A DNA stretch of 64,000 nt, taken from Alphaproteobacteria bacterium (GTDB lineage: Bacteria; Pseudomonadota; Alphaproteobacteria; JBFXJJ01). The first letter of the stretch is position 1; each line of letters begins with the position of its first letter. The position numbers and the translations under genes are program-made. The notes below the pieces were generated by a model that did not search any database, had not been told where the DNA came from, and worked only from the letters and a program-made list of their open reading frames with translations. Shown piece after piece: positions 25,491 to 48,797 of this stretch. The stretch is from contig JBFXJJ010000001.1 of NCBI GenBank assembly GCA_050175015.1, positions 248,336 through 312,335 of the forward strand, written 5' to 3'.

Positions 25491-27060
25491 TTAAGAGTTT
25501 CTAATTTTATTGATAAAATCGGCTACTTGATTTTTTAACATTACTGATTTTTGAGCAAGTTCTTTAGAGGCAGCTAGAACTTGGTTAGCTGCGGAGCCTG
25601 CTTCACCTGCAGCCTGAGTTACACCAGAAATGTTGTTGGAGACGTTTTTTATACCTTCTGAAGCTTGGGCGGCATTTCTAGATATTTCGCCTGTTGCAGC
25701 TCCTTGTTCTTCGACTGCAGATGCTATAGTAGCGGAAATTTCATCAATCTTAGAAATGACTTCTCCAATTCTAGCAATAGCAGTTACGGCTTGATTAGTT
25801 TTGCCTTGAACATCTGATATTTGTTCAGCAATATCCTCTGTAGCCTTAGCTGTTTGGTTAGCAAGATTTTTAACTTCGCTTGCAACTACAGCAAAACCTT
25901 TGCCGGCATCGCCAGCTCTTGCAGCTTCGATTGTAGCATTAAGAGCAAGCAAGTTAGTTTGGTTGGCAATATCTGTGATAAGAGAAATAATCTCGCTAAT
26001 TTGCTGTGCAGATTCTGATAAACTGCCGATAACGTCATTAGTAATATTTACTTCGTTCACAGCTTGACGGGCAATATCTGATTCTGCAGAAACCTGTCTT
26101 GCAATTTCATTAATGGAGGCCGTTAATTCTTCAGCCGCCGCTGCCACAGTTTGAACATTGGTTGATGCTTCCTCTGATGCTTCGGCAACGTTTGCAGCTT
26201 GTTGAGCGGTTTCATCTGAAATTGCAGACATACTTTCTGCCGTCGCGTTAAGCTCGGTTGAGGCTGCCGATACAGCGTCTACGACGTTCATAATAGAAGC
26301 TTCAAAATCTTTAATAATTACTTCCAATTGTTTTAGTTTGGCGACTTGTTTTTCTTGTTCTTTACGTTGTTCTTGTTCTAAAACTTGGGTTTTAAGAGCG
26401 TTATCTTTAAAAACCTGCATAGCTTCTGCCATGTCGCCGATTTCATCGGTGCGCTTTTTTTCAGGAATTGCAACATCTAAGTCACCATTGGAAAGGATAT
26501 TCATCGCCTTAGTCATATTTTTTATGGGTAAAGAAATCCCTGATGCCATTAGATATCCAACAAAAGCAACAATTACAGCAAAAACAAAAGCGATAATAAA
26601 AATAACTTGGCTCATTTGGGAGACATCGGCTAAAGCTTCGTCTCTATCAATTGTAGACACCGTAATCCAATTAACATCTAAAAACTTGACCTTTTCTGCT
26701 TCAAAGAGAACTTTGTGTCCATAAAAATCTGGACAGTATCCCAATTCAGTGCCGCTTTCAAAGGCCTTGTTCATACAAGGGTAGGAAAAGTCTAGTCCTA
26801 TCTTAATATCAGGTTTTCCAGAGGTTATAGTTTCAATGCCGGTACGGAGCGAGGTAATATCTTTATTACGCCCGACAACAAAAGAATTACCAGTTTTTCC
26901 CATGCCGTCCCTTGGAATTACAATACTTTCGATTGCTTCTTGAGGAATTTTAAAAGCTACAAGGCCGATAGTTTGCAATATAGCCTACCAGAATCAAGGG
27001 CAGTAAACCAATAGCTAAAAAAGCTATAATTAATTTGGATTTTATCTTTAATTTAGACAT
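25491..27060 (-). pseudogene. Methyl-accepting chemotaxis protein, frameshifted and internally deleted
   Basis: AGGAGG plus ATG 27060 encodes TM1 ([31 protein letters not shown]) then stops at 26950; the remainder (end of Cache domain, TM2, [24 protein letters not shown]) is in another frame, 26978-25491. Confidence 0.8.
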
Positions 27061-29067: not shown

Positions 29068-32000
29068 ATGACTATGAACTGGGTTGAAAATTTTTCAAAG
29101 ACCTTAGTTGAAAAACTTGGGCAAAAAAAAGGCGAAAGTTTTGTAAAAAGATATGCTAATTCATTTAAATCCAATTATCACGACCGTTTTGATGCCGAAA
29201 GTGCATACAAAGATGTTTTAAACATAGAAGAAGTTGCAAAAACTGGAAAACCTTCAACCTATCTTTATGAACCAGAGAAAAAAGACGGAAACAAGGTCTG
29301 TTTTAAACTTTATTATCCAAGAGAATCCGCGGTTCTTTCTGATGTTATTCCTATGCTTGAGCATATGAGTTTTAAGATTTTAACAGAAATTCCTTATCAA
29401 TGCTCATTTCAAGATGCTAAAGAAACTGATGATATTAAATCAGTATGGGTACATAACTTTACAATGGTTCGTATGGATAAAAGTAAGGTTGATGTCGAAA
29501 AAATAAGAGACGATTTTCAAGAAGCCTTTAAAAAGGTTATGGACGGTGATGTTGACGATGATGGTTTTAACTGCCTTATTTTAGTTGCAGGGCTTAATTG
29601 GCGTGAGGTTTCAATTGTTAGAGCTTATGCTCGTTATTTAAGACAAGCAGGTATTACACTTTCTCAGGACTACATTAACTCTGCTTTGGCAGCAAACCCT
29701 GAGATTACTAAAATGCTGGTTGATTACTTTGAATCTAAATTTAATCCTGCAGCAAGTGTCAGAAAAACATCAGCTGCCAAAATAGCTGAAATTGATGCTA
29801 AGATTAAAGCTGCTCTTGATAATGTAACAAGTGCAGAGGAAGACCGTATTATAAGATATATTGTAAATCTTTTAGAATGCACTCTTCGTACTAATTTTTA
29901 TCAATCAAAAGCAAAAAATTACATTTCTTTTAAACTAAACAGCAAGGAAATTTATGATTTGCCTCTGCCACGTCCAATGGTGGAAATCTTTGTTTACTCT
30001 CCTCGTATGGAAGGCATTCATTTAAGAGGCGGCAAAGTTGCTAGGGGTGGTATTCGCTGGTCAGACCGCCACGAAGATTACAGAACTGAAATATTAGGTT
30101 TGGTTAAAGCCCAAATGGTTAAAAATGTGGTTATCGTTCCAACAGGTTCTAAGGGCGGATTCGTCTGCAAAAAAATGCCTTACAATGGAACCAGAGAAGA
30201 AATCTTGGCTGAGGGCATCGAATGTTATAAAACATTAATGCGTGGTATTTTAGACCTCACAGATAACATAGATTTAAAGAATGATAAAATTGTTCCTCCT
30301 GAAGATGTTGTTCGTTATGATGAAGACGATCCTTATCTTGTTGTGGCCGCGGATAAAGGAACAGCAAGCTTTTCCGATATTGCAAATGGTGTTTCTCAAG
30401 AATATGGTTTCTGGCTTGGCGATGCTTTTGCTTCTGGCGGTTCAGTCGGTTTCAGTCATAAAGATATGGCGATTACTGCAAAGGGCGCTTGGGAATGCGT
30501 TAAGCGTCATTTCCGCGAAATTGGCGTTAATATTCAAACGACTGATTTTCAAGTGGCGGGTGTCGGTGATATGTCTGGCGACGTATTCGGCAATGGTATG
30601 CTCTTGTCAGAACATATTAAATTAGTAGCAGCGTTTGACCATCGTAATATTTTTATTGATCCTAATCCAGATCCTAAGAAATCATTTAAAGAAAGAGAAC
30701 GTATGTTCGCTTTACCTCGCTCAAGTTGGGAAGATTATAACCAAGAGCTAATTTCTGAGGGCGGCGGTATTTTTAGCCGTAAAGCTAAAAGCATTACGCT
30801 TTCAAAAGAAATTAAAAATCTTTTGAATATTAAAGAAAGCAGCCTCACGCCTAATAATTTAATTAAAGCCATTTTAAGATCTAATATCGATTTGTTATGG
30901 TTTGGAGGTATTGGTACTTATGTTAAATCTTCGGCGCAAAGAGATTCTGATGTCGGCGATAGAAGCAATGATGCCTGCCGCATTAATGCTAACGAAATCA
31001 AAGCAAAGGTTGTGGGTGAAGGTGCCAATCTTGGTATGACACAAAAAGCTCGTATTGAATACTGCTTAAATGGCGGCCGTTGCAATACTGATGCTATTGA
31101 TAATTCTGCTGGTGTTAATTGTTCTGATATCGAAGTGAACTTCAAAATTTTATTAAATGATATTATTTCATCGGGTAAGATGGATATTAAGGGACGTAAT
31201 AAACTGCTGGTAGAGCTTACAAGTGATGTTTCTAAGTTAAGTATGAGAGCTAATCAGCTTCAGGGGCAGGCTTTAAGCCTAATGCTTGCTCAAGGCACTT
31301 CGATTATGAGTGAGCAAAAAGACTTATTTAAGTTTTTAGAAGAAGATGGGCTTCTTAATAGAGATGTTGAGTTTTTACCATCTAATGACGAAATGGACGA
31401 TAGATTTTCAAAAGGTCAAGGGCTTACTAGACCTGAGCTTTCTATTTTAATGCCATATTCTAAAATTTGGCTTTATAAACAAATTATAGAAAGCGATCTG
31501 CCAGATGATCCAATGCTTACAGAGCGGGCTTTGTTTAATTATTTTCCTAAACAAATTCGTGAAAAATATGGTGAATTTATTAAGAGACATCGTTTACGTC
31601 GTGAAATAATTGCTAAACAGATTACCAATACTTTAATTAATCGTGTTGGTGGAACATTTGTTACCTCTCTTATGGAAAAAACGGGAATGCCTCCTTCAAT
31701 GATTGCTAGGGCGTTTCTCGTAGCTGTTATTTCATTTTCGATTAATGATATCTGGGATAGTATTGAAGCTTTAGACAACAAAGTTGATGCCAAAGTTCAG
31801 ACAATGATGCTGATCGAAATTAACCGTATTTTAGAAAGAATTACGCAGTGGATTTTAAGAAGAGGTCCAGCAAAAATTGATTTAACATTAGTTACCAAAG
31901 AATTCAAAAACAATGTTGATGATGTTGCCGCCTCTATTGATGCAGCGCTTGCAGCCGTAAATGACAGCTATATTAAGGATTTTGCTAAAATTTATATGGA

Positions 32001-32484
32001 TCAAGGTGTTCCTGAAATATTGTCGCGTCGTGTTGCTAGCATACCGTTACTTTCTTCTGGGCTTGATATTGGTCAACTATCCAGAAAATATGGTGTTCCA
32101 ATAGAAATAGTCTGCAGTATTTATTTTGCTATCGGTAAAGATTTTGATTTAAGATGGATGAGAGATTCTCTCAGAAAAGATGTCTTTATTGACAGCCACT
32201 GGAAGCATCTTGCCGTTTTTGGCATTGAAGAATCGCTGTTTGCTCAGCAGCGTTCAATTGTTGCTCGTATTTTGGAATATCTTGGCAAAGATATTGTTAA
32301 ACTTGCGAAGAAGGATCCTTCTTTTGAAGGTGCAATTAATTCATGGAAAACGGAGCATGAGTATATCGTAAAACGTATATCCAAAGTAATTCGTGATATT
32401 AAAGCATCAAATAAAGTTGATTTAGCAATGATGATGGTTATGACACGCAATCTAAGAGCTTTGTCGGAACCACGATTATTGTAA
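29068..32484 (+). CDS. Large NAD-specific glutamate dehydrogenase, N-terminally shortened
   Basis: VARGGIRWSDR, GLVKAQMVKN, VVAADKGTA, GDMSGDVFGNG, EGANLG, LTRPEL. Confidence 0.93.
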   Translation: MTMNWVENFSKTLVEKLGQKKGESFVKRYANSFKSNYHDRFDAESAYKDVLNIEEVAKTGKPSTYLYEPEKKDGNKVCFKLYYPRESAVLSDVIPMLEHMSFKILTEIPYQCSFQDAKETDDIKSVWVHNFTMVRMDKSKVDVEKIRDDFQEAFKKVMDGDVDDDGFNCLILVAGLNWREVSIVRAYARYLRQAGITLSQDYINSALAANPEITKMLVDYFESKFNPAASVRKTSAAKIAEIDAKIKAALDNVTSAEEDRIIRYIVNLLECTLRTNFYQSKAKNYISFKLNSKEIYDLPLPRPMVEIFVYSPRMEGIHLRGGKVARGGIRWSDRHEDYRTEILGLVKAQMVKNVVIVPTGSKGGFVCKKMPYNGTREEILAEGIECYKTLMRGILDLTDNIDLKNDKIVPPEDVVRYDEDDPYLVVAADKGTASFSDIANGVSQEYGFWLGDAFASGGSVGFSHKDMAITAKGAWECVKRHFREIGVNIQTTDFQVAGVGDMSGDVFGNGMLLSEHIKLVAAFDHRNIFIDPNPDPKKSFKERERMFALPRSSWEDYNQELISEGGGIFSRKAKSITLSKEIKNLLNIKESSLTPNNLIKAILRSNIDLLWFGGIGTYVKSSAQRDSDVGDRSNDACRINANEIKAKVVGEGANLGMTQKARIEYCLNGGRCNTDAIDNSAGVNCSDIEVNFKILLNDIISSGKMDIKGRNKLLVELTSDVSKLSMRANQLQGQALSLMLAQGTSIMSEQKDLFKFLEEDGLLNRDVEFLPSNDEMDDRFSKGQGLTRPELSILMPYSKIWLYKQIIESDLPDDPMLTERALFNYFPKQIREKYGEFIKRHRLRREIIAKQITNTLINRVGGTFVTSLMEKTGMPPSMIARAFLVAVISFSINDIWDSIEALDNKVDAKVQTMMLIEINRILERITQWILRRGPAKIDLTLVTKEFKNNVDDVAASIDAALAAVNDSYIKDFAKIYMDQGVPEILSRRVASIPLLSSGLDIGQLSRKYGVPIEIVCSIYFAIGKDFDLRWMRDSLRKDVFIDSHWKHLAVFGIEESLFAQQRSIVARILEYLGKDIVKLAKKDPSFEGAINSWKTEHEYIVKRISKVIRDIKASNKVDLAMMMVMTRNLRALSEPRLL

Positions 32485-32507
32485 ATCTATTTTATTCAAC
32501 AAAAATT

Positions 32508-32552
32508 AAACAAGTGAAAAACTCTTTTATGATAGTTTTTCACTTGTTTTTC
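32508..32552 (+). terminator. Intrinsic terminator after glutamate dehydrogenase
   Basis: 16-bp stem AAACAAGTGAAAAACT/AGTTTTTCACTTGTTT followed by T run. Confidence 0.75.
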
Positions 32553-32715
32553 TTGTAATACAACAAAAATATAATAACGAGATTGATACATATTTAGAAA
32601 AATAAATAAAAAATAACAAACTTATAAATAATATCAAGATAGTTTATAATAATACGCTTGTTTTTTTTCTTGTTATCTTTTAAAGTCTAGAAGGTTTGCA
32701 AGAGTTTGCAGACTA

Positions 32716-32910
32716 GGGCGTCGAAACCCTTTGATGTGTGCAGCTTGGCACAGGCTGATTTATTTATGTGTCGCCTCGGTCCTAGGGTCGGGGTGATAAC
32801 AGTGTATGTACAAGTTCCCTCCCCCAAGAGATAGGACTAAAGACTGTTATGCCTTTTTACATCAAGGTTTTCGAACACCCCGACCGCCAAGCTAAGCTAT
32901 TTTGGCGGTC
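32716..32910 (+). ncRNA. Structured RNA locus resembling phage C4-type antisense RNA with upstream target
   Basis: Closing stem GGTCGGGGTG/CACCCCGACC, inner stem ATAACAGT/ACTGTTAT, segment 32859-32874 complementary to 32721-32737; GC-rich island in AT-rich DNA. Confidence 0.6.
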
Positions 32911-33027
32911 ACATCGGTATGCAGTAATTTTATTGATACATAACTGAAACGATTAAGAAATATTCTTGATACAGAAATATGCTTTAATAAGATTATTGTT
33001 GTTAGTACTTTTTATAGGGGACAGGCT

Positions 33028-34731
33028 ATGTTTGCTGTAGTAACAAGGTTAAAATTTTCTCAAAAAATTATTATTTCATCTATGTTATCGCTATTAGTAT
33101 TAGGCGGAACTTTGACAGTGCAGTCATCACGCGGCATTAAACAGGAAATGCTTCAAATGGCTCAAGAAGACCAAAATACTTCTCTTAATGTATTAAAAGC
33201 AATTTTTGCTAATATGGGCAGTGAGATCAAAATATCCGATAATAAGTTGATGGTAGGAGAACATATTGTTAATAATGATTATCTTATAGTTGATAGAGTG
33301 AAAAACATCTCTGGTGGTGTTGCAACAATCTTTATGAAAACTATAAAAAACGGTTCAATTGAATTTGAGCGCGTGTCAACTAATATTGTAAATGACAGCG
33401 GAAATAGAGCTGTTGGAACTCTTTTAGCTAAGGGTGCTGTTTATGATAGTATGATGAATGGCAAAACATTTTTTGGTGAGGCTGATATCTTAGGTAAAAG
33501 CTATTTTACAGCTTATGAGCCGATAAAAGACAGCCGAGGTGAAATTGTTGGCATTTATTTTGTTGGTTTATTACAAAGCGATTTCTTAGGTATTATTAAC
33601 AAAACAATAAATGATTTGGTTCTTATTTCATTAGTAACAGTTATTGTTATCACTTTGCTTTTGACTATTTTCTTCAAGAAACAACTTAAAGTTATGTTAG
33701 ATTTAAATAATGTAATGGGCGATATTTCAAACGGGGACTTTAACATAAAAGTTCCAGGACAAAGCCGTTATGACGAAATCGGCGATATGGCAAGAGCTGT
33801 TGAAGTGTTTAAAGAAAATGGTATTAAGACCAAAGAGCTCGAAGAAGCTCAGAAACAAGCTGAGATTAGAGCTGCCAAGGAAAAGAAAGAAATGATGCAT
33901 AAAATGGCAGATGACTTTGAAAAAGCAGTTATGGGTATTGTTGACGCTGTATCTGCTGCCGCTACCGAAATGAATTCGACGGCTGAGAATATGTCAGCTA
34001 TTTCCGAAGAAACAGCTCAGCAGGCAACCGCAGTTGCCGCAGCTTCCGAACAAGCTGCTGCGAACGTTCAAACTGTTGCCGCCGCTGCTGAAGAACTTTC
34101 CAACTCTATTGCTGAAATTTCAAGGCAGGTGACAGAAGAATCAGCTATAGCTAGACAGGCTGTAGAAGAGGTTCACACAACAAATGCTGTGGTTGGCGGA
34201 CTTGTTCAATCCGCTCAAAGAATTAGTGAAGTTGTTGAACTCATCACTGATATTGCCAATCAAACGAATTTACTTGCTCTTAATGCAACGATTGAAGCTG
34301 CTCGTGCTGGTGATGCTGGCAAGGGATTTGCTGTTGTTGCTAGTGAAGTTAAGAATCTTGCTAATCAAACAGCAAGGGCAACGGAAGATATTTCTAATCA
34401 AATTTCTGATGTTCAGGGTAAAACTAATCAGGCGGTATCAGCTATTACTAACATCGGGTCTGTTATCGATAAGATTGATGAAATATCAGCTGCAATCGCT
34501 TCTGCTGTTGAACAACAAGGCGCAGCAACATCTGAGATTTCACGTAATGTTGAACAAGCATCACAGGGAACAGCTGAAGTATCTAATAATATTGTTGGCG
34601 TAACACAGGCTGCAGGTGAGGCTGGTTCAGCGGCTAACCAAGTTTTGACAGCATCTAAAGAACTTGCTCAAAAGTCAGTTCTTTTAAGAGATGAAGTTAA
34701 AAACTTTATTGTAAAAATTAGAGCATCATAG
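33028..34731 (+). CDS. Methyl-accepting chemotaxis protein with Cache sensor domain
   Basis: TM1, VATIF..RVSTN..GNRAVGT..YFTAYEP Cache domain, TM2, HAMP, MCP hairpin motif. Confidence 0.95.
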
Positions 34732-39099: not shown

Positions 39100-40719
39100 T
39101 TAATTTTTCTTTTTTCTTTTATTGCGAGGCAGCAAGATATTTAATATTTCATAGTCCATATCAAAAGCATCGTTTTTCTTAGCATAATCAAACGCGGTTT
39201 CTTCAAAGATGTTTTTGGCATAGATATTGGCTCCGCATTTGACTAAAGTTTTAACAACATCACGGCTTTTGCTGCTTTTGGCGGCAAGCATTAATACGGT
39301 AGAGCCAAGCAAATCATCTTTCGTTTCTAATTTAGCTCCAGCTTTTACCAACACTCTTATGATGTCAGGATTTTGGTTAAATTGAGCAGCCCACATTAAA
39401 GGCGTGATTCCAATCTTTAAATTAACATCAGCGCCTTCATCGATTATTGTTTTTATAACAGCGGGATTGCTATTGTACCTAGCAGCTAAGATTAGTGGAG
39501 AATTTTCACTTTTTGCTAAAGCATTTGCCCCAGCTTTTACTAAAGCTTTGGCAACCTCGTGTTTTGTGTTATAGCGGCAAGCAAGCATTAACGCATTTTC
39601 ATTTTGTTTGTTAGTATCGTCAATATCTGCTCCGAGTTTAAGTAAATCACTAATAAATAGGTGGTTGGGATTATATCTAGCGGCCATCATCAAAGCGGTA
39701 TAGCCATCATTATTTTTGGTATTAATATCACAGCCTGCGTTAGCCAATACTTTTAGAATTTGATTTTTACGGTTATTTTTTGCTGTCAGCATTAAAGCTG
39801 TGCTGCCATCATTATTTTTATCATTTACGTTAAGACCGGCTTTAATAAAACAGTTAACAACTTCATGGTTACGGTTAAAACTTGCAGCCAACATTAACAG
39901 ATTGTCATTATTGCTGGTTCTATCAGCGATAGAGGCATCTTTTGCAATAAGAAAATCAATAACCTCAGGATCTTCATTATAAATCGCAGCTAACATCAAA
40001 GGAGATTCACCTTTGGCATTTTTAACTGTAACATCTGCCCCATTATCTAATAATGCGCTAACAGCTAAGGCATTTTTATTAGATTTAATTGCCCACATTA
40101 AAGGTGTCATTCCATCTTTATCAGCCGTGTTTATATTAGCTCTGGCTCTTATAAGACTAGCTAGAACATTATAATTTTTGTTTAGTGCTGTAGCTAAAAT
40201 TAAAGGTGTAACGCCATTTTCGCCTTGATGATTGACATCAGCACCAGCGTTAATAAGAGTTTCGATAATGTCTACTTTAGGAGACGTGCCTGCAAGATAC
40301 GTTAAAGGGGTTTTGCCGTTTTTAGTTACTACGTTGACATCGGCTCCAGCATCAATTAAAGCCGTAATAATAGCATTATCTAATTTTAGATTGGTTGCGC
40401 CAATCAAAGCCGTCGTCCCATCTTTAGCACTAATATTAACATCAGCTTCTGCTTCTATTAATGCTCTGATTAATTTTTCGGCATCAGATTTAGTATAAAA
40501 GAAAATAGCGTACATTAAGGCTGTACGTCCAAGACCGTCTACTGCATTAATTTTTGTTGTCGATTTATGGATTAATTTATTGATTTTTCTAAATTTTTTA
40601 TTATCAGCAATTGCACGCATCAAGGGAGTAACGTCAGATCTATCCTTTGGTTTATAACTAGCAAAGAAAAGGATAGTGATGATTAATAATAATGCAATTA
40701 TGCCAAAAAGTAATATCAA
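39100..40719 (-). CDS. Membrane-anchored ankyrin repeat protein
   Basis: N-terminal hydrophobic anchor; about 14 G.T(P/A)LM.AA...LI.AGADVN repeats; ends RNKRKKKN. Confidence 0.92.
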   Translation of the reverse strand: MILLFGIIALLLIITILFFASYKPKDRSDVTPLMRAIADNKKFRKINKLIHKSTTKINAVDGLGRTALMYAIFFYTKSDAEKLIRALIEAEADVNISAKDGTTALIGATNLKLDNAIITALIDAGADVNVVTKNGKTPLTYLAGTSPKVDIIETLINAGADVNHQGENGVTPLILATALNKNYNVLASLIRARANINTADKDGMTPLMWAIKSNKNALAVSALLDNGADVTVKNAKGESPLMLAAIYNEDPEVIDFLIAKDASIADRTSNNDNLLMLAASFNRNHEVVNCFIKAGLNVNDKNNDGSTALMLTAKNNRKNQILKVLANAGCDINTKNNDGYTALMMAARYNPNHLFISDLLKLGADIDDTNKQNENALMLACRYNTKHEVAKALVKAGANALAKSENSPLILAARYNSNPAVIKTIIDEGADVNLKIGITPLMWAAQFNQNPDIIRVLVKAGAKLETKDDLLGSTVLMLAAKSSKSRDVVKTLVKCGANIYAKNIFEETAFDYAKKNDAFDMDYEILNILLPRNKRKKKN

Positions 40720-48169: not shown

Positions 48170-48797
48170 AGTCTGCCCCAGTAATTAATTCTACAATTTC
48201 GGTCATATCTTTAATAACAAGTTTCACAGGTTTTTTATATTTTGCAAGCCCTTGTTCTAAACCTATAAACAAGCAGCCGAATTTTTCTGCCGCTTCCCTG
48301 TCATTATCCCCATCTCCGACCATAGCTATATTATAGTTATTTACATTTTCTTGAAGAGCAATTTTTTGTAAATTTTCAATTTTTTGATTATGACCGCCGT
48401 AAATTCCCTTGAATAAGTTGTTCCAGCCACGTTTTAAGACCGTTTTGCCAAGACTTTCTTCGGGAGTTGCAGAATTAATGTACAAAGCAAGCCCTTCTTT
48501 TTTAAGAGCTGTCAGAGCTTCAAAAGTACCCGCTATTTCTTGACATTTAGCAATATGGGTTTCAACGGCAGACGTATAAGCTTGGCTTAACTCATCGGCT
48601 TTTTCTGGTTTACCAATATCACTCGCAAAAAGTTTGAATATGCCAAAGCGATCTCCACGATTAGGGTTTTTAAATATAGCGTGCATTTTTGTTTCGCCAT
48701 CTTCAAATTGAGAGGCGATATCAAAAAATGCCTGCTTTTTATAAACTTCTGACCATACTAAGGTATCATCAAAATCAAAAACAACGCAGGAGATCAT
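48156..48797 (-). CDS. HAD-superfamily hydrolase
   Basis: FDFDDTL, INSATP, MVGDGDND. Confidence 0.88.
   Translation of the reverse strand: MISCVVFDFDDTLVWSEVYKKQAFFDIASQFEDGETKMHAIFKNPNRGDRFGIFKLFASDIGKPEKADELSQAYTSAVETHIAKCQEIAGTFEALTALKKEGLALYINSATPEESLGKTVLKRGWNNLFKGIYGGHNQKIENLQKIALQENVNNYNIAMVGDGDNDREAAEKFGCLFIGLEQGLAKYKKPVKLVIKDMTEIVELITGADFERQ

Follow-up and report, generated by a model that had tools for sequence, protein, structure and literature searches.

An alphaproteobacterial RNA of the C4/sRNA-Xcc1 kind fused to its own a1/b1 leader, with a predicted fold switch, upstream of a chemoreceptor gene

C4-type RNAs are textbook phage immunity factors. In the annotated record of phage P1, the 77-nt C4 RNA (48343-48419) is preceded by the sites a1 (48255-48261) and b1 (48269-48276) and followed by a2 (48423-48429), b2 (48452-48459), and the icd start (48470). 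Rfam alignments and the sequence place a1 in the loop of a 4-bp hairpin, with b1 just 3' of it; within the C4 RNA, the last hairpin holds b' in its loop, and a' (CUGUCAA) forms the linker before the 3' closing strand. Chromosomal relatives of C4 are known in Gammaproteobacteria, with roles that are unclear. C4-like RNAs outside phages are already listed for Proteobacteria in the table of Weinberg 2010 (PMC2864571), in which the c4-a1b1 motif is recorded only for Gammaproteobacteria and phages, and our literature search, which did not cover the supplement of that paper, found no paper on C4 antisense RNA in Alphaproteobacteria. Here we describe such an element in a 64,000-nt stretch of an alphaproteobacterial genome (GenBank assembly GCA_050175015.1, contig JBFXJJ010000001.1, positions 248,336 to 312,335), referred to below as the window. 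Our favored reading, which we hold with moderate confidence, is that positions 32693-32910 of its + strand encode an RNA of about 215 nt that is an alphaproteobacterial member of the C4/sRNA-Xcc1 kind, is fused to its own a1/b1 leader, and would switch between two folds. Its identity as a C4/sRNA-Xcc1-type RNA that carries its own a1/b1 leader is firm.

Several other described RNAs invite comparison, and three of them, IsrK, sRNA-Xcc1, and the Brt RNAs, are precedents for an RNA that is both an sRNA and a leader. The Group 1 C4-like small RNAs (sRNAs) of Acinetobacter baumannii exist in many chromosomal copies with a C4-type fold and variable a'/b' segments; they are processed from longer transcripts at GGW, the RNase P site reported for C4, and the authors propose that they have been co-opted for host functions (PMC5320573). 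sRNA-Xcc1 is a Xanthomonas integron-cassette sRNA that lies upstream of symE in the cassette (bioRxiv 10.1101/2025.06.18.660453); it is multicopy in Xylella, where Rfam annotations of C4, isrK, and Xcc1 interleave (PMC12189769). In the case of IsrK, from the Salmonella Gifsy-1 prophage, the terminated transcripts target in trans the longer RNA made by read-through at their own locus (PMC4825925). The Brt RNAs of Bartonella henselae, an alphaproteobacterium, form a set of nine copies of 194-203 nt that are most conserved at the 3' end, are highly transcribed, terminate just before the downstream gene, and have been proposed to combine a cis switch with a trans-acting sRNA (PMC5387305).

The window RNA consists of a leader and a C4-like core (Table 1). 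In the leader, two hairpins, the second of which holds a1 in its loop, are followed by b1, a terminator-like hairpin, and a C-rich segment (segment 1); in the core, a closing stem encloses a long hairpin, a second hairpin (P6) with b' in its loop, and a linker, a', to which a1 is complementary. The long hairpin is made up of P4 (8 bp, 32796-32803/32843-32850), a conserved internal loop (GUAUGUACA at 32804-32812 and AAAG at 32839-32842), and P5 (32813-32817/32834-32838). An earlier reading made without database searches (the sequence-only reading) had already picked out much of this arrangement, and each of its elements was found on inspection. The island is G+C rich (40-51%, versus 15-26% in the flanking spacer). 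The proposed target, TCGAAACCCTTTGATGT, is present at 32721-32737 as described, and the small hairpin and T-rich run that follow it were also found by a terminator scan. The closing stem is a perfect 10-bp helix (32786-32795/32876-32885), the 8-bp inner stem corresponds to P4, and the antisense segment ACATCAAGGTTTTCGA at 32859-32874 complements the target with a one-base length difference. The competing 9-bp hairpin (32882-32890/32902-32910) shares 4 nt with the closing stem.

BLAST searches with the element found diverged copies in its own genome, in another genome (five copies), and in a third; the core was strongly conserved among copies, and the differences were compensatory. We searched for a fixed core word in viral contigs, where it had no match, and in a species-level genome collection, where it occurred at 24 places. 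The 21 true motifs among these were all in metagenome-assembled genomes labelled Alphaproteobacteria, Candidatus Enterousia, Rickettsiales, or Rhodospirillales/Rhodospirillaceae; the other three (L024, L029, and L031) were rejected as chance matches, the rest of the motif being absent by eye. A covariance model, R1, built from 22 distinct cores, detected five copies in the window's own genome and at least one match in 27 of 151 genomes of a class-level sample with one genome per family (1-10 copies each; 26 of 150 without the unpublished genome G040). In a phylum-wide sample, 20 of 151 genomes had a match, 13 of them from Pseudomonadota classes other than Alphaproteobacteria. Distant BLAST found no similar DNA in phage and plasmid collections, a sequence-level result, since the covariance model was not run on them. 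The window copy retains all RNA modules of the family. Leader hairpin 1 has a counterpart in the same position in the genome's other copies and in those of a second genome, G002, where its loop in five copies (L003-L010) is CAAAAU, the consensus loop of the Rfam c4-a1b1 family. We also considered a sigma-54 promoter in the conserved upstream motif GGTTTGCA...TTTGCA and rejected it; the spacing misfits the consensus, and the motif is leader hairpin 1 itself. In the weakest own-genome copy (L039; G000:C45:2284-2430, - strand; 35.1 bits), which precedes a gene for an Mrr_cat_2/ResIII-type restriction enzyme, the long hairpin is interrupted by a large insertion. Near one family member in a nonalphaproteobacterial genome, about 1.3 kb away, lies a type II hammerhead ribozyme (RF02276; L111:2896-2960, - strand; 66.4 bits versus a cutoff of 37).

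Folding of the single sequence was only mildly unusual (-75.8 kcal/mol and z = -2.81 versus shuffles for the + strand; z = -4.41 for the - strand). Because it was only mildly better than that of shuffles, the case had to rest on comparison with relatives. We aligned 85 forward-strand R1 matches, having dropped 2 reverse-strand matches (21-22 bits) from a total of 87; the locus of G040 is left out of this set, to which the counts over 85 loci below refer. Covariation, which the sequence-only reading had named as a check on its proposal, was clear: all 26 modelled pairs had changes on both sides. Paired cells made up 94.3% of the alignment, versus 70.0% in shuffles and 37-44% in slid controls, and the covariation score was 0.680, versus 0.233 and 0.06-0.09, respectively. 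Double changes were seen at 10/10 pairs of the closing stem (98.9% of cells paired), 8/8 pairs of P4 (96.7%), 4/4 pairs of P5, and 4/4 modelled pairs of P6 (about 80%); the ninth pair of the closing stem, for example, is U:A in 25 loci and A:U in 44. We place the RNA on the + strand because the helices hold frequent G-U and U-G pairs, neither of which could form in the complementary strand, and because of the orientation of the downstream gene. We conclude that the comparative evidence for a structured RNA is decisive. An element that is multicopy, G+C rich, and intergenic and that has long inverted complementarity could also be a non-RNA repeat, such as a miniature inverted-repeat transposable element or a repetitive extragenic palindrome, or a chance palindrome. 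We find this scarcely credible, since copies in the own genome share only about 70-78% identity, over parts of the element, and differ in a compensatory manner, 83 of 85 loci have the same orientation toward the gene downstream, the structure is specific to one strand through its G-U pairs, and the family extends over several classes of a phylum.

The a/b code of each copy is private to its own locus. The a'/b' duplex with the locus's own leader had an energy of -21.2 kcal/mol, versus -13.9 kcal/mol for nonself leaders, and for 62 of the 84 distinct loci the self pairing was among the best 5%. Exact complements of 7 nt were found in the own leader in 77 of these 84 loci (15.9% of nonself pairs), and complements of 9 nt were found in 37 (1.2% of nonself pairs); 6-mer complements were present for the P6 part in 74 loci and for the linker in 78. 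In 66 of 85 loci the center of a1 lies in a hairpin loop whose stem varies yet stays paired, as judged by eye from the folds. Outside the leader, there was little sign of further targets. The sequence-only reading had suggested that the genome be searched for more of them, and an ungapped search of the own genome, of a kind that misses the window's own gapped upstream target, gave 19 sites with up to 3 mismatches, versus 24 for a reversed control. We also looked for downstream a2/b2 sites in the ribosome-site region, including the first 35 nt past the core. Duplexes there had energies of -10.78 kcal/mol for self pairs and -10.71 kcal/mol for nonself pairs, with the self pair in the top 5% in 7 of 73 loci, and 7-mer target words occurred downstream in 13 of 84 loci, versus 8.3 expected.

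One relative differs from the rest in this respect. At L049 (G143:C9, 1501-1700, + strand, with downstream sequence to 3112), which R1 scored at 64.7 bits, the a1/b1 words recur downstream at the ribosome site, with a2 at +24 and b2 at +34 abutting the ATG. The gene that follows encodes an Ant antirepressor (AntA in Pfam; phrog_5817, E = 1.6e-45) and is itself followed by a tape-measure-like open reading frame (ORF), so that the region is probably a prophage immunity region. L049 is a full P1-style C4-Ant module in another alphaproteobacterium, and it ties the family to C4. It is the only one of 83 family loci with linkage to Ant, and a2/b2 sites were convincing only there.

The position of the family members relative to genes is regular. 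Heuristic calling found a co-oriented ORF no more than 300 nt from the core in 83 of 85 loci, at a median distance of 48 nt; it lies within 60 nt in 72 loci, and a Shine-Dalgarno-like motif is present in 79. The 83 downstream proteins are diverse by Pfam: outer-membrane beta-barrels (4), OmpA-like proteins (3), HsdM (2), acyltransferase_3 (2), several DNA methylases, an Mrr/ResIII enzyme, an autotransporter, Ant, an iron-hydrogenase-like protein, and, in the window, a methyl-accepting chemotaxis protein (MCP). Many of them have signal peptides or lipoprotein signals, as judged by eye. Two small-protein families recur among these products. In G002, which has nine R1 matches, the eight copies examined (L003, L005, L006, L008, L010, L087, L095, and L097) each precede a small paralogous protein of 55-95 aa with a motif around PIDATTKMLNAGI.AGA, for which no Pfam family stood out. 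In G116 and G136, a second family of about 76-95 aa, alpha-helical in appearance, follows the RNA (L046, L073, L084, L102, L050, L075, and L092).

The same sequences can pair in two ways. In 62 of 85 loci, the 3' hairpin starts 3-4 nt inside the 3' closing strand, and in 52 this overlap is combined with at least four T's in the next 8 nt. At the other end of the core, segment 1 can form an alternative hairpin with the 5' closing strand (32769-32782 with 32786-32798 in the minimum-free-energy [MFE] structure of the window RNA). The segment 1 columns were out of register in the alignment, so we examined this pairing with per-locus duplexes. Opposite position 9 of the closing stem, segment 1 has U in 29 of the 37 loci with A at that position; in the 26 loci with U there, it has A or G in 15 and U in 7. 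MFE folds of the core alone contained the closing stem in 85 of 85 loci. With 30 nt of upstream sequence, the closing stem was retained in 44 loci and upstream pairing was predicted in 36; with the 125-nt leader, the closing stem was retained in 5, upstream pairing was predicted in 73, and pairing of a' with the leader was predicted in 79. For the window RNA, the leader-paired fold with the 3' hairpin (fold I) had an energy of -81.3 kcal/mol, versus -76.9 kcal/mol for the C4 fold (fold II); a transcript ending at 32895 favored the C4 fold, and the full-length RNA flipped to fold I in the MFE prediction. On these models, the leader appears to mask the antisense RNA and to undo the closing stem, freeing the terminator strand, and two-state behavior of the window RNA is likely.

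We propose the following mechanism. In fold II, the closing stem would be formed and a' and b' would be exposed. In fold I, a1 and b1 would pair with a' and b', and segment 1 would pair with the 5' strand of the closing stem, freeing the 3' strand for the 3' hairpin, which in most relatives would be an intrinsic terminator about 48 nt before the co-oriented gene. The family would thus be a self-addressed leader, in which the balance between the folds sets 3'-end formation and read-through and also the release, probably by RNase P at the GGU, of a processed RNA of about 100 nt. In the window RNA, the candidate maturation motifs are the GGU at 32786, a putative RNase P site, and the tRNA-like GCCA at 32886-32889. 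What the data show is the structure with its covariation, the a/b complementarity within each locus, the alternative pairings, and the arrangement of genes; from these features we infer transcription, processing, the trigger of the switch, and its output, including any control of the MCP gene. The model also suggests a function for the a1/b1 sites, which have long been puzzling, namely, the masking of the antisense RNA within its own transcript.

Other explanations start from the internal loop of the long hairpin, whose bases are invariant (GUAUGU.CA on one side and AAAG on the other). The RNA might be a ligand-sensing riboswitch, for a second messenger, for example, with the internal loop as the pocket, the closing stem as the antiterminator, and segment 1 as the anti-antiterminator. 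Its competing helices do form the classic 1:2, 2:3, and 3:4 set, and several copies per genome lie before surface, chemotaxis, and defense genes, as is the case for some second-messenger riboswitches. The Bartonella Brt RNAs, of ~200 nt and with a terminator before the gene, have also been proposed to be riboswitch-like (PMC5387305). We nevertheless regard a riboswitch as improbable, since locus-specific complementary a/b segments are a hallmark of antisense addressing and not of an aptamer, one member (L049) is a genuine C4-Ant module of the immunity type, the closest family in Rfam is that of an sRNA, and the downstream genes have no common metabolic theme. Alternatively, the loop might be the site of a global RNA-binding protein or an antitermination factor, with the a/b pairing being merely structural. 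The loop is strongly conserved in sequence in a way that pairing does not explain, and the downstream genes serve accessory and surface functions; such genes are often under dedicated antitermination. We consider this highly improbable: no conserved protein gene accompanies the element, and the a/b code varies by locus yet stays complementary, which a structural role would not require.

Rfam searches at relaxed thresholds placed the core nearest to sRNA-Xcc1 (RF02221), which aligned end to end over 32787-32892 (23.6 bits, E = 0.11). The same family was the sole recurrent weak Rfam match among relatives, in 9 of 28 loci (31.7-38.6 bits in 4 of 20 and 28.4-35.0 bits in 5 of 8); it gave no match at E <= 1 in the first nine relatives' loci. 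Since this was the only recurrent weak match and some members have Xcc1-type loops, we take the family to be a sister of sRNA-Xcc1 that lies beyond the reach of the Rfam model. At gathering thresholds, Rfam 15 had no match in the window, and the family is uncatalogued in the sense that it is below these thresholds in the window and in the tested relatives' loci. The c4-a1b1 model had no match at E <= 1 in nine relatives' loci, and the isrK model (RF01394) had none at E <= 10 in 32500-33100. A plastid psbA 3' untranslated region match (25.2 bits) was spurious and arose from a hairpin and T-run at 32509-32552, which lie on the + strand just after the upstream glutamate dehydrogenase gene and are probably that gene's terminator.

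A number of observations weigh against our reading, some against the identity of the RNA and others against its function in the window. The Infernal searches that the sequence-only reading had put forward as a check gave no match to C4 (RF01695, gathering cutoff of 45 bits) at E <= 10 in the whole own genome and none to c4-a1b1 (RF03163, cutoff of 46.7 bits) at E <= 10 in 32500-33100. The sRNA-Xcc1 score is far below the cutoff of 53 bits, and only one of the five own-genome copies was matched. R1 gave 2.3 bits on the P1 c4 locus, which we do not score as a match; what connects the family to P1 is therefore its architecture, the short motifs in common, and the L049 intermediate, and not a significant alignment. 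The 85-locus alignment was fitted to the R1 model, and its loci are related to one another. Covariation in segment 1 comes from one position, with an imperfect association, and the fold predictions are purely thermodynamic, combined with conserved complementarity. At the MCP ribosome site of the window there is no a2/b2, the best downstream duplex having an energy of -10.4 kcal/mol and no shared 7-mer. Control of the MCP gene in cis would be weak, because the tail of the window's 3' hairpin (ACATCGGT) has 2 T's in 8 nt, the start codon lies 142 nt past the closing stem instead of about 48 nt, and a promoter-like site intervenes. The window copy has the competing hairpin, followed by ACAUCGGU in place of a U-run, so that control by termination is at most a possibility here. 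We regard cis control of the MCP gene by the window RNA as possible. Lacking both an a2/b2 target in the MCP mRNA and a U-run behind its hairpin, the window copy may by now serve chiefly as an sRNA gene whose influence on the MCP gene is weak at most.

These same features are what the main rival explanation draws on, a possibility that we take seriously but doubt: that the same RNA has another role, acting in trans as a free-standing C4-like sRNA and taking no part in regulation of the MCP gene. It might be a domesticated immunity RNA or decoy directed against phage or mobile-element transcripts with matching a/b words, or it might regulate unlinked host mRNAs. Beyond the missing U-run, the distance to the MCP start, the intervening promoter-like site, and the missing a2/b2, every copy has a private a/b code, and a trans mode of action is known or proposed for C4 and for the C4-like RNAs of A. 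baumannii (PMC5320573). The arrangement of the family argues against this role, since members directly before a co-oriented ORF in 83 of 85 loci would be unexpected for free-standing sRNA genes. So do the own-genome target sites, which were not in excess over the control, and the collections, with no similar DNA in those of phages and plasmids by BLAST and no core word in the viral contigs.

The window RNA lies between the gene for an NAD-glutamate dehydrogenase (29068-32484) and the MCP gene. No further copy was found within the window by repeat search, and ARAGORN found no tRNA or tmRNA in 32400-33100. The sequence-only reading had stated that no phage genes accompany the RNA, and this held for the 14 ORFs at 21.7-43.8 kb, in which a Pfam scan found no phage family: 9 ORFs belong to chromosomal families, among them KsgA, radical SAM, a second MCP, M24 peptidase, an ankyrin protein, and polysaccharide synthesis, and 5 had no match. 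Linkage to icd or an ant antirepressor was likewise absent from these ORFs. The neighbors are housekeeping genes and no integron context was seen, although a search for an integrase or attC was not made. Promoter-like sites in the region numbered 4, versus 2.7 expected in shuffles. Two repeats in the window are explained by its genes. An 810-nt inverted repeat with 72% complementarity (25500-26309 and 33913-34722) is due to the signaling domains of two oppositely oriented MCP genes (25491-26978, - strand, and 33028-34731, + strand), and a 43-nt direct-repeat family at 39370-40216 is due to the gene for a 539-aa ankyrin-repeat protein (39100-40719, - strand), unusual for bacteria.

Table 1. Parts of the window RNA and features downstream of it
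Feature	Position	Strand	Basis
Leader hairpin 1, 9 bp, loop GAGU	32693..32714	+	RNAfold of 32690-32925
Leader hairpin 2, 4 bp, loop holds a1 UCGAAAC (32721-32727)	32715..32730	+	Sequence, RNAfold
b1, UUUGAUGUG	32730..32738	+	Complementary to b' in P6 loop
Leader hairpin 3 (7 bp, 32741-32757) and U-rich run, terminator-like	32741..32767	+	Terminator scan
Segment 1, C-rich, alternative pairing with closing stem 5' strand	32769..32782	+	MFE structure
Closing stem, 5' strand, GGUCGGGGUG	32786..32795	+	Begins with GGU; covariation
Long hairpin (P4, internal loop, P5)	32796..32850	+	Invariant columns, covariation
P6 hairpin, 4 bp, loop holds b' ACAUCAA (32859-32865)	32852..32867	+	Sequence, covariation
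Linker a', UUUUCGAA	32868..32875	+	Between P6 and closing stem
Closing stem, 3' strand, CACCCCGACC (32876-32885), then GCCA (32886-32889)	32876..32889	+	Covariation
3' hairpin, 9-12 bp, 4 nt common with closing stem	32882..32910	+	Sequence
Promoter-like site TTGATA, 16 nt, TAAGAT (weak)	32966..32993	+	Between RNA and MCP start
Methyl-accepting chemotaxis protein gene	33028..34731	+	Cache_3-Cache_2, HAMP, MCPsignal domains (Pfam)

The P1-style design, in which leader targets are combined with an antisense core, is present in about one in six of the alphaproteobacterial families sampled, usually directly before genes for outer-membrane proteins, lipoproteins, restriction-modification systems, or chemoreceptors and without the classical downstream target. 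It is a concrete example, open to testing, of a regulatory RNA from phages put to new use as the leader of host genes, and the family, which escapes detection by Rfam 15, now has an alignment and a covariance model. A broader proposal can be made only tentatively: self-addressed C4-type leaders might be widespread RNA-only switches of phage-derived design in Alphaproteobacteria and other Pseudomonadota, each with a private address, whose processed core flips its own nascent transcripts between terminated and read-through states. If this were true, the core would compete with the intramolecular pairing of a1b1 with a'b', giving locus-specific feedback that could be bistable and resemble phase variation, and the genes under control would be those for surface proteins, restriction-modification systems, and chemoreceptors.

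We compared the element with each of the described systems. The Brt RNAs resemble the family by description only, as about 200-nt RNAs in several copies with termination before a gene; they differ in having XRE regulators downstream, and their authors' BLAST searches found no relatives outside Bartonella (PMC5387305). The A. baumannii Group 1 RNAs differ in that they are from Gammaproteobacteria and are found by the Rfam C4 model and in that neither a self-complementary leader nor a fixed place before genes is reported in the accessible part of that paper (PMC5320573). IsrK shares the dual output of a short and a read-through RNA; it differs in corresponding to the leader part only, in being prophage borne, and in that its model has no match here. 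On P1 itself, the isrK model aligns with the a1/b1 leader (48230-48311; L106) at 35.1 bits, versus a cutoff of 50, and the alignment includes the terminator-like hairpin and U-run before C4, which match leader hairpin 3 in place. By this alignment, IsrK-type RNAs would be the counterpart of the leader module in C4 systems.

Among Rfam families, only sRNA-Xcc1 gives an alignment from one end of the core to the other. Common to both are a closing stem, two hairpins of which the first has an internal loop (AUACAAUA / GAA), a linker rich in U, and an aCC tail. The internal loop of the window RNA differs, being GUAUGU.CA, and some family members hold the Xcc1-type loop AUACAA in its place. A further difference is the a1/b1 leader, which is not described for Xcc1 in the literature examined.

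The comparison with C4 and its a1/b1 leader, known from phages P1 and P7 and placed in Rfam clan CL00128, is the most extensive, and it was made with P1. The order of modules is the same: leader hairpins, a1 in a loop, b1 3' of it, a terminator-like hairpin, and then a closing stem, inside which the last hairpin has b' in its loop and the linker holds a'. Leader hairpin 1 matches in position the first hairpin of P1's c4-a1b1 leader. The edges of the core are also alike, with UAU|GGU.GGGG on the 5' side and CC-RCC on the 3' side. At the 5' edge, P1 has GCCCGAAUUAU|GGUGGGG and family members have CCCCGAUUAU|GGUCGGGG; of the 85 loci, 49 have GGT at the start of the closing stem and 35 have TAT just before it, and after the stem comes RCC in 62 and RCCA in 42. 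The differences are that the closing stem of the window RNA has 10 bp and not 17, that its first inner hairpin is expanded to a long hairpin with the conserved internal loop, that its 3' hairpin overlaps the closing stem, and that its locus, in an alphaproteobacterial host, lacks a2/b2, icd/ant, and phage genes. What defines a C4 core, a b' loop and an a' linker inside a closing helix, is found in the window RNA, as is what defines c4-a1b1, two upstream hairpins with a1 in the loop of the second and b1 next to it. We conclude that the P1 architecture and the chain of relatives support the proposal, first made in the sequence-only reading, of a C4/CI-like RNA that is carried on a transcript with its own target and without an antirepressor.

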